DNA from: Escherichia coli
Lineage (GTDB): Bacteria > Pseudomonadota > Gammaproteobacteria > Enterobacterales > Enterobacteriaceae
NCBI RefSeq assembly: GCF_024223415.1
Contig: NZ_CP100500.1
Reading direction: 5' to 3' (one strand)
Length of the DNA: 64,000 nt
Made by a program: the position numbers and the translations under genes. Of the stretch, positions 18,626-56,492 are shown piece after piece (positions within the stretch are counted from its first letter, which is position 1; each line of letters begins with the position of its first letter). Under the pieces are notes generated by a model that was given only the letters and a program-made list of their open reading frames with translations, ran no database searches and was not told where the DNA came from.

Positions 18626-18655
18626 AAAAAGCCTGCTCGAAAGCAGGCTTTTTTG
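18626..18655. terminator. bidirectional Rho-independent terminator hairpin between ldtA and asnV
   Basis: aaaaagcctgctcgaaagcaggctttttt. Confidence 0.7.
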
Positions 18656-21033: not shown

Positions 21034-21060
21034 AAAAGCCCGCTATAAAAGCGGGCTTTT
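21034..21060. terminator. Rho-independent terminator after cbl
   Basis: aaaaagcccgctataaaagcgggctttt. Confidence 0.7.
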
Positions 21061-23067: not shown

Positions 23068-23423
23068 GATTTCTGTGTTTCGTGCGCTTAATCGAGTCTC
23101 ACGCTTCAGTGAGCAAATTGCCCCTCCCCAACAGACATCACGATTCACAGGGTCAAAAATTCTGTTCCATGAAGTACCGTACAAAGATAAAGAGAAAAAT
23201 GCCTTATGCGGGATGTAGCTGTCGCGTCTTTATCGGGAAACTATACGTAATTGCCACTTTGTCTTCGGTAATCAGAAAAAGAAGACCTGGAATTTTAATA
23301 AATATTATTTCTCTGGGGGCGGTATTTTTATAATCAATATGACGAGTTGAACATTATATTTATTATAAGAATTATATGAAATTAAAGAAATCTGCCATAA
23401 AGACAGATTTCTTTAAAATATAA

Positions 23424-40408: not shown

Positions 40409-40545
40409 GCGAAATGCAATAACTCTTAGAAAACGAGAGCATAGTTTTCTCAGGTGTATTTACCTATCTTATTGAAATAAAATAAATTATGTCGATGATT
40501 TGAGGTTGATGACAAACGAAACATAACCTGATGCGATCTGTGTGG

Positions 40546-40575
40546 GCCGGATAAGGCGCTCGCGCCGCATCCGGC
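40546..40575. repeat. REP (repetitive extragenic palindrome) element
   Basis: gccggataaggcgctcgcgccgcatccggc. Confidence 0.6.
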
Positions 40576-45892: not shown

Positions 45893-46483
45893 AGTGTATT
45901 CCTTATTGTTGCTTAGTTAGGGTAGTCACTATATTTGCGACTGAGCTGGTCGTTATTTTTACCCAGGCTGGAAAATTGAGTCAATATATCGAAAGCGGTA
46001 GTCGGCGGGCGTAAGTATGTAATGATGATGCTGCACTGGTGTTGAATATTATTCACACCAACTTTTCCTTATTGAGCAACGCCGTCGCAAGTGGCCTCAA
46101 TGATTTTAGACCATTATCAGAGATCCGGGGCGGCAGGGAGAGATTTAGTGCTGTGGAATATTGTGGTGCTGATGAATATTTATATCCCGGATTGGCAGAG
46201 AAAAAGCTTTTTTCATGCACTATTTTTGCAAATATTTCTATATGGACGGCGGTTTTGTTGCGGATTAATTCATAAAGAAATGCATTTGGGTGTTGGCTGG
46301 AAGAAACGCTGGTAGATTTTATTGAGCCAGGAGGGGCGGGGTAATGTGCTGTATCGATATGCTTTGGCAATTGCGTGTGCCGCAGATGGAGATGAAATGC
46401 CAATAAAAAAGCCTGAGTTCGATGAGGGACGAACTCAGGCTAGTGTTTAGTTTTACAGTAACACGCCGCGGCGCGTTGGCTGA

Positions 46484-52353: not shown

Positions 52354-53271
52354 ATGCTTTTGGCCGGGAGTAGTTTACTGACGTTGCTCGATGATATCGC
52401 CACACTGCTGGACGATATCTCCGTGATGGGCAAACTGGCGGCGAAGAAAACCGCCGGTGTATTAGGGGATGACTTATCGCTCAATGCGCAACAAGTTTCA
52501 GGCGTGCGGGCCAACCGGGAACTTCCCGTGGTCTGGGGCGTGGCGAAAGGATCGCTGATTAATAAAGTGATTCTGGTGCCGCTGGCGCTGATCATCAGTG
52601 CGTTTATCCCGTGGGCGATTACGCCTCTGTTGATGATTGGTGGCGCGTTTCTCTGCTTTGAAGGAGTAGAGAAAGTGCTGCATATGCTGGAGGCTCGTAA
52701 ACATAAAGAAGATCCGGCGCAGAGCCAGCAGCGTCTGGAGAAGCTGGCGGCGCAGGATCCGCTGAAGTTTGAAAAGGACAAAATAAAAGGGGCGATTCGT
52801 ACCGATTTTATATTGTCTGCGGAAATCGTCGCCATCACGCTGGGGATTGTGGCCGAAGCGCCGTTGCTTAATCAGGTGCTGGTGCTTTCAGGCATCGCGC
52901 TGGTAGTGACCGTGGGCGTCTACGGTCTGGTAGGGGTTATCGTTAAGATTGATGACCTGGGGTATTGGCTGGCGGAAAAATCCAGCGCGCTGATGCAGGC
53001 ATTAGGTAAAGGGTTATTGATCATTGCGCCCTGGTTGATGAAAGCATTATCGATTGTCGGCACGCTGGCGATGTTCCTCGTCGGCGGCGGGATTGTGGTA
53101 CATGGTATTGCGCCGCTGCATCACGCCATTGAACATTTCGCCGGGCAGCAAAGTGCAGTGGTGGCGATGATATTACCGACTGTTTTAAATCTGATTCTTG
53201 GATTTATCATCGGCGGCATCGTGGTGCTGGGAGTGAAAGCCGTAGCGAAAATACGCGGTCAGGCACATTAA
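52354..53271 (+). CDS. yedI: DUF808 inner-membrane protein
   Basis: 305 aa. Confidence 0.85.
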
Positions 53272-53349
53272 TACTCGCACAGGCTATTATGCAAAATTCG
53301 CCATCTTCAACTAAGGTGAACAAGTTTCACTCGAAAAAAGGAGGCGAGT

Positions 53350-53592
53350 ATGAGCTTTATGGTTAGTGAGGAAGTTACGGTTAAAGAGGGCGGCCCGCGG
53401 ATGATTGTCACTGGATACTCCAGCGGTATGGTTGAGTGTCGTTGGTATGACGGTTACGGGGTCAAGCGGGAGCTTTTCATGAAACCGAGCTTGTTCCGGG
53501 GGAGGGGAGTCGTTCTGCGGAAGAAGTTTGAAAGGGTATCATTAACACCAGGCCGGATCACATCCGGCCTGGTGTGCCAATGCCTGCAATGA
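53350..53592 (+). CDS. yodC: small DUF2158-like protein; 3' end uncertain (a perfect hairpin lies inside the predicted C-terminus)
   Basis: MSFMVSEEVTVKEGGPRMIVTGYSSGMVECRWYDGYGVKRE. Confidence 0.5.
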   Translation: MSFMVSEEVTVKEGGPRMIVTGYSSGMVECRWYDGYGVKRELFMKPSLFRGRGVVLRKKFERVSLTPGRITSGLVCQCLQ

Positions 53593-53701
53593 ATGATAGT
53601 CGCGTCTTATCATGCCACCATTATAAAATTATCGCTGTTTTGCGGTACGCTATCGCCAGGTTATGCCAGAATCATAAAAAAGCAGGTTGGGAGTCGTCAG
53701 G

Positions 53702-56226
<2,525 letters not shown>

Positions 56227-56405: not shown

Positions 56406-56492
56406 AACACATCAGATTTCCTGGTGTAACGAATTTTTTAAGTGCTTCTTGCTTAAGCAAGTTTCATCCCGACCCCCTCAGGGTCGGGATTT
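56406..56492 (+). ncRNA. dsrA: DsrA small regulatory RNA (activates rpoS, represses hns)
   Basis: AACACATCAGATTTCCTGGTGTAACGAATTTTTTAAGTGCTTCTTGCTTAAGCAAGTTTCATCCCGACCCCCTCAGGGTCGGGATTT matches DsrA as recalled, including its terminator. Confidence 0.9.

Follow-up and report, generated by a model that had tools for sequence, protein, structure and literature searches.

The 64-kb stretch of Escherichia coli DNA analysed here (the window) carries, just past the native end of yodC, a perfect hairpin that we are almost certain is a decayed REP lying downstream of a frameshifted copy of the gene. Alignment with its orthologues shows that a y-type REP, inverted with respect to yodC, was reduced to its basal stem when a net deletion of 13 nt took away the apex (the bulge, upper stem, and loop); the remaining hairpin appears intragenic because one lost base shifts the yodC frame. 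The full explanation, which joins this identity to a role at the RNA level, we consider likely. To a specialist the case is an ordinary one that holds no surprise, in which a frameshift specific to one lineage accompanies a degenerate member of a repeat family already known.

A Perfect 14-bp Hairpin Is the Longest Inverted Repeat of the Window

The inverted repeat is real and occupies positions 53545–53575 on the plus strand, with arms of 14 nt each at 53545–53558 (ACACCAGGCCGGAT) and 53562–53575 (ATCCGGCCTGGTGT) that are 100% complementary and enclose a 3-nt loop, CAC; its assignment as a y-type REP relic without the 13-nt apex draws on structure, homology to full REPs, and a chance test. An earlier note made from the letters of the window had placed a perfect hairpin with a 12-bp stem at 53549–53575, and the perfect hairpin exists as it claimed, but its 5′ end lies 4 nt further upstream and its stem is 2 bp longer. 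No perfect inverted repeat in the 64-kb window is longer, and first-order Markov shuffles of the window gave on average 0.01 repeats of at least 12 bp and none of at least 14 bp. Folded as RNA, the 31-mer has a dG of −26.8 kcal/mol (z = −7.5), which none of 200 shuffles equalled, and in its 91-nt context the fold reaches −35.6 kcal/mol (z = −4.75). RNAfold additionally drew an outer stem pairing 53534–53539 with 53580–53585, which is absent from the long allele described below and was therefore disregarded. An Rfam scan of 53250–53750 (E values up to 10) returned chance-level matches only, the best scoring 17.6 and 16.6 bits against gathering thresholds of 47 and 100. Three more long perfect inverted repeats with stems of 12–13 bp and no obvious T-tract are present in the window at 2720–2755, 23382–23416, and 46410–46441.

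A Single-Nucleotide Deletion Carries the yodC Frame through the Hairpin

The three genes yedI, yodC, and dgcQ follow each other on the plus strand of the window in an order that is conserved across Enterobacteriaceae. The upstream gene yedI (DUF808) lies at 52354–53271 and the downstream gene dgcQ, which encodes a diguanylate cyclase and has a GTG start, at 53702–55396, both assigned from the ORF list, RefSeq annotation by alignment, and synteny. The hairpin falls within an ORF of 80 aa on the same strand (53350–53592), where it takes up codons 66–75 (TPGRITSGLV); the ORF list, the DUF2158 match, and the 60-aa orthologues identify this ORF as a frameshifted yodC in which residues 1–41 are native and residues 42–80 are out of frame. 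A 471-nt query found matches in 5,364 of 5,426 complete E. coli genomes, and the best match differs from the window by a single gap. In the alignment, one A of CGGGAAGC, the sequence of all other E. coli, is missing from the plus strand of the window at 53471/53472, where the window reads CGGGAGC, and a 61-nt query centred on this site recovered the sequence of the window in none of the 5,287 complete E. coli genomes matched. The deletion lies at codon 41/42, 58 nt upstream of the native stop, which is the TGA at 53529–53531 (plus strand), out of frame in the window and established from where RefSeq ends the CDS in four genomes, one of them K-12 (b1957). The frameshifted ORF skips its own TGA, crosses the hairpin, and ends 61 nt further on at the TGA at 53590–53592.

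In each genome inspected, K-12 included, the RefSeq yodC is 183 nt long (60 aa) and ends at the TGA corresponding to 53529–53531, 13 nt before the start of the hairpin. Comparison with orthologues, which the earlier note had proposed as a check, found no conservation of an 80-aa frame: in 80 other species-level enterobacterial genomes, all 80 orthologues are 59–62 aa long. Residues A42, F43, E45, and L48 are invariant among them, and the frame of the window turns A42 into L and E45 into K, so that the C-terminal motif R-E-A-F-[RH]-E-x-[ED]-L, like the length of 59–62 aa, is absent from the window ORF, which reads RELFMKPSL and runs to 80 aa. The Pfam model PF09926 (DUF2158) matches with 28.3 bits against a cut-off of 22.3, but covers residues 9–44 only of the 80-aa ORF and ends just past the shift. 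The idea that the hairpin marks the true gene end and that the ORF has been extended is thus borne out by the RefSeq CDS ends and the orthologue lengths, with the refinement that the native stop lies 13 nt ahead of the hairpin and not at it. The earlier note had suggested a shifted stop as the source of the extension; the extension is confirmed, but the stop codon is not mutated, and the cause is the 1-nt deletion. On this comparative evidence, the 80-aa product represents YodC/DUF2158 after a frameshift, and its last 39 residues are not conserved sequence.

The exact 80-aa protein has been deposited several times (CAK1206188.1, STQ49559.1, SRA11533.1, and others) and is encoded on at least 99 public contigs. 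This deposition favours the view that the ORF is a genuine, functional longer isoform of YodC, with the hairpin as coding sequence or a recoding signal, but we find that view scarcely credible: the 90%-identity cluster of the protein has a single member, the allele is absent from every complete genome matched, the orthologues have a uniform shorter length, the shift destroys the invariant A42 and E45, and the tail is encoded by REP-derived DNA. Neither is the frameshift at all likely to be a sequencing or assembly error in a yodC that really encodes 60 aa. A single-base deletion found in no complete RefSeq genome would fit an error, but independent runs and assemblies yield the same protein in about 150 index blocks, three independently assembled loci (SRR29200026, SRR22666504, and GCA_974490515.1) agree with the window at every one of 360 nt, and the site is an AA dinucleotide with no long homopolymer. 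The frameshift allele is rare but real and not a one-off error. The locus matters mainly for annotation: the 80-aa "DUF2158 domain-containing protein" deposited from this lineage is a frameshifted yodC with a tail of translated REP DNA, and its entry calls for the label of a pseudogene or variant and not for that of a new isoform.

In E. coli NU14 (NZ_CP019777.1, 2065163–2065345), RefSeq flags yodC as a pseudogene with an internal stop. Together with the frameshift of the window, this pseudogene suggests that at least two E. coli lineages have inactivated yodC separately, that of NU14 and the frameshift lineage to which the window belongs.

The Hairpin Descends from a y-Type REP within a BIME

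The origin of the hairpin becomes apparent from alleles in which more of the element is kept. A long allele, present in 1,216 genomes (~22% of E. coli), has a 42-nt palindrome, CACCCGACCGGATGTGGCGCTCACGTCGCATCCGGTCGGGTG, where the hairpin sits and a full second REP, TGCCTGATGCGACGCTATCGCGTCTTATCATGCCTAC, about 20 nt beyond it. This two-REP arrangement is also found in all six other Escherichia genomes from the species-level scan, which are E. albertii, E. whittamii, two further Escherichia species, and two divergent genomes labelled E. coli. We compared these elements with the published REP consensus GCCGGATGCGGCGTGAACGCCTTATCCGGCCTACGA (PMC12306157), taken as its reverse complement. The orthologous Escherichia elements agree with it at 24–32 of 34 positions, one of them over 32 contiguous positions, and the window hairpin, which by its sequence is now half an element, agrees at 19 of 34 positions with 13 deleted. 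The right-hand part of the locus has decayed as well. Alignments show that a linker between the two REP relics spans 53576–53598 (plus strand) and includes the TGA that ends the frameshifted ORF, and that it is followed at 53599–53619 (plus strand) by the right half of a z2-type REP (GTCGCGTCTTATCATGCCACC) whose left half is missing; the long allele has the full version, TGCCTGATGCGACGCT..GCGTCTTATCATGCCTAC, as do all the other Escherichia sampled.

The likeness to a y-type REP, and to a y–z2 BIME, thus lies in the orthologous position in other Escherichia and in ~22% of E. coli, in the extragenic location just 3′ of a gene, and in the consensus basal stem AGGCCGGAT...CATCCGGC, which the hairpin retains. 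The differences are equally clear. The hairpin has 31 nt and not 35, its apex is deleted, and it has no AA–GC bulge, the stem being perfect and brought to 14 bp by bases from its flanks; at its foot it reads CCAG and not GTAG (ACCAGG where the consensus has GTAGG); and the multiple copies expected of a REP are lacking, as this form is single-copy. Because the GTAG foot, the bulge, and multiple copies all fail, the hairpin is best described, from its alignments, as a decayed REP derivative by descent and not as a current family member. The window likewise lacks the defining arrangement of a BIME, at least two REPs in alternating orientation with a short linker, as REP1 is left with its base and REP2, the partner z2 REP, with its right half. 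The long E. coli allele has this arrangement, and so have all the other Escherichia sampled.

Of 5,426 genomes, 4,146 (~76%), K-12 included, have the short form, each at a single locus; the median of two places reported for the 35-nt query reflects the two strands of the palindrome at that one locus. In K-12 the hairpin lies on the minus strand at 2028144–2028174 and has one U–G wobble. The 9-mer AGGCCGGAT has a single occurrence in the window. Under the native gene model the hairpin is extragenic, and it overlaps an ORF in the frameshift lineage only. These observations give the history of the locus. In the Escherichia ancestor, a y-type REP and a z2-type REP formed a BIME between yodC and dgcQ; in most E. 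coli (~76%, with K-12 and the window among them), a 13-nt internal deletion produced the perfect 14-bp palindrome, and the left half of the second REP was also lost; and in the lineage of the window, the 1-nt deletion in yodC lets the frame run through the hairpin. The locus is an example of REP/BIME decay: other genera have a terminator at this place, Escherichia has a full BIME, and most E. coli keep a perfect hairpin whose apex is deleted.

The copy number of the BIME at the yodC–dgcQ locus is variable. E. coli E69 and E. whittamii have a tandem REP1–linker–REP2 BIME in two copies between yodC and dgcQ. Within the long E. coli allele, a stretch of about 36 nt is directly repeated, GTCGCGTCTTATCATGCC..TTATAAAA.TATCG. 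Elsewhere in the window, the only near-canonical full REP lies on the minus strand at 40542–40575 (GCCGGATGCGGCGCGAGCGCCTTATCCGGCCCAC), with 31 of 34 consensus positions and a foot of GTGG instead of GTAG. The K-12 RefSeq record has no REP feature at the yodC locus, and none in the msrQ–zinT interval, which we take to be the K-12 counterpart of the place of this canonical REP. Since REP features are lacking in the record at both places, their absence from the annotation is uninformative. The RepRanger supplements contain no yodC entry.

Paired Changes Modestly Support a Maintained Basal Stem

Among 12 aligned sequences, 90% of cells form pairs, versus 33–37% when the partners are slid by 1–3 columns, and five pairs have changed on both sides. 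Two of these five double changes, A–T to C–G and G–C to A–T, separate the short from the long E. coli alleles, and Escherichia sp. MOD1-EC7003 has an intermediate single step that is fully paired. As 10–12 of 500 shuffles equalled the observed covariation values, covariation in the alignment lends modest support to maintenance of the stem. All eight short-allele sequences compared have the same inner 12 bp, and the outermost two pairs are weakened in the O157 and K-12 alleles. A hybrid long allele in E. coli JX21CE8 combines the left arm of the short allele (CACCAGGCC) with the right arm of the FORC_028 long allele (GGTCGGGTG), which leaves its basal stem half-compensated with one A–G mismatch and one G–U pair; this allele may be an intermediate or a recombinant.

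The Hairpin Is Not a Canonical Intrinsic Terminator

The earlier note had proposed a terminator or a REP-like element. The second label is upheld by the orthologous element in other Escherichia, which fits the published consensus at 30–32 of 34 positions; the first fails for a canonical intrinsic terminator. The hairpin does provide one terminator feature, a GC-rich stem-loop with a 14-bp stem and the stability given above, but no T-tract follows, the 8 nt past the stem being GCCAATGC, and a terminator scan of 53000–54000 reported no site, while the same scan found the terminator of Citrobacter. Because the T-tract and a scan site are both missing, the hairpin is not a canonical intrinsic terminator. 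Other genera do have one at this place: at least 51 of 74 non-Escherichia loci carry a canonical intrinsic terminator past yodC, defined as a GC hairpin within 25 nt of the yodC stop (mostly 4–7 nt) with at least five T among the 8 nt behind it. In Citrobacter, Salmonella arizonae/diarizonae, Kosakonia, Enterobacter, Phytobacter, and others, this terminator is AAAACGCCCGGN..CCGGGCGTTTT. The hairpin shares with these terminators its place between yodC and dgcQ and a GC-rich stem, but has no U-tract and is unrelated in sequence save for a CCGG core. No experimental yodC 3′ end was found, as the available supplements of Adams et al. 2021 (PMC7815308), TERMITe (PMC12207403), and SMRT-Cappable-seq (PMC6131387) contain no yodC entry. 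Canonical terminator-like hairpins are present elsewhere in the window at 18626–18653, 21034–21060, and 56466–56490.

Possible Roles of the REP Relic

Expression of yodC depends on sigma-S, and detection of the 61-aa protein is on record for Salmonella. REP stem-loops have been reported to block 3′-to-5′ exonucleases and to attenuate transcription (PMC12306157), and, according to the summary of Liang, Rudd and Deutscher 2015 in PMC12306157, the upstream ORF is translated less when a REP lies closer than 16 nt to a stop codon. In its normal context behind a 60-aa gene, the hairpin would form a very stable 3′-UTR stem-loop on the sigma-S-dependent yodC transcript, where it would block 3′-to-5′ exonucleases and so set and stabilise the 3′ end of the mRNA, and it may attenuate read-through into dgcQ, the REP/BIME holding the place that the intrinsic terminator has in other Enterobacteriaceae. 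At a distance of 13 nt from the stop, the stem could also affect translation of YodC. In the frameshift lineage, ribosomes would translate through the stem and add the 39-residue non-conserved tail. [quoted passage not shown] Because of the sigma-S-dependent expression of yodC, the reported activities of REPs, and the missing features for TnpA_REP, we put at about even chances the proposal that the element is an immobilised REP relic acting as a protective 3′-UTR stem-loop or as an attenuator on the yodC transcript.

Three other readings of the hairpin have to be set against this proposal. One is that the hairpin is itself the Rho-independent terminator of yodC and the functional successor of the terminator of other genera. 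Its very stable GC-rich stem would suit this, as would its location with respect to the yodC stop, which matches that of the canonical terminators of other Enterobacteriaceae; with no T-tract after the stem and no site in a scan that did detect the Citrobacter terminator, this is quite improbable. That the palindrome acts at the DNA level (as a cruciform or as a site for gyrase, Pol I, or a nucleoid protein), or is a functionless neutral relic, also seems unlikely, despite the DNA-level roles reported for REPs and BIMEs (PMC12306157) and despite outermost pairs that vary by lineage and one allele that is half-compensated. Against it stand the inner 12 bp that are the same in eight short-allele sequences, the perfect basal stem that the short, long, and MOD1-EC7003 alleles keep by paired changes, and the transcription of the site as the 3′ UTR of an expressed gene, all of which fit DNA and RNA pairing alike. 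Descent from a y-type REP could further suggest an active mobile REP that serves as substrate of the REP-associated tyrosine transposase TnpA_REP (RAYT). The E. coli TnpA_REP requires a GTAG foot and an AA–GC bulge (PMC8266576), however, and the hairpin has a CCAG foot, a perfect stem without the bulge, and a single locus per genome, which reduces the chance of an active element almost to nil. Since the features needed by TnpA_REP are absent, the relic is probably no longer mobile. Active RAYT substrate, genuine long isoform, and sequencing error were all considered and rejected, and a decayed, probably immobile REP past a frameshifted yodC is the reading that we retain.

A more far-reaching proposal, which we offer as a speculation with a small chance of being right, is exaptation. 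A truncated, immobile REP without a U-tract would have replaced the ancestral terminator in Escherichia, would be kept perfect by compensatory changes, and would set both the yodC 3′ end and the read-through into dgcQ; in the frameshift lineage, ribosomes melting the stem would couple translation of yodC to expression of dgcQ, a c-di-GMP cyclase gene. The locus could in any case serve as a natural test of how a REP stem acts once the features recognised by the transposase are gone.

Some minor observations concern the surroundings of the hairpin. In a supplementary table of Adams et al. 2021 (PMC7815308, file 2), K-12 minus-strand position 2027287 is listed as "internal" to dgcQ, about 730 nt into the gene. 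In nine loci from genomes of the Citrobacter freundii complex, neither a terminator hairpin nor dgcQ is found within 1.5 kb downstream of yodC, and the same nine loci share a conserved stretch, CTCTCAACCATTAGTTATATTTATCATTT.GGTGAGAAT, about 30–70 nt past the yodC stop.
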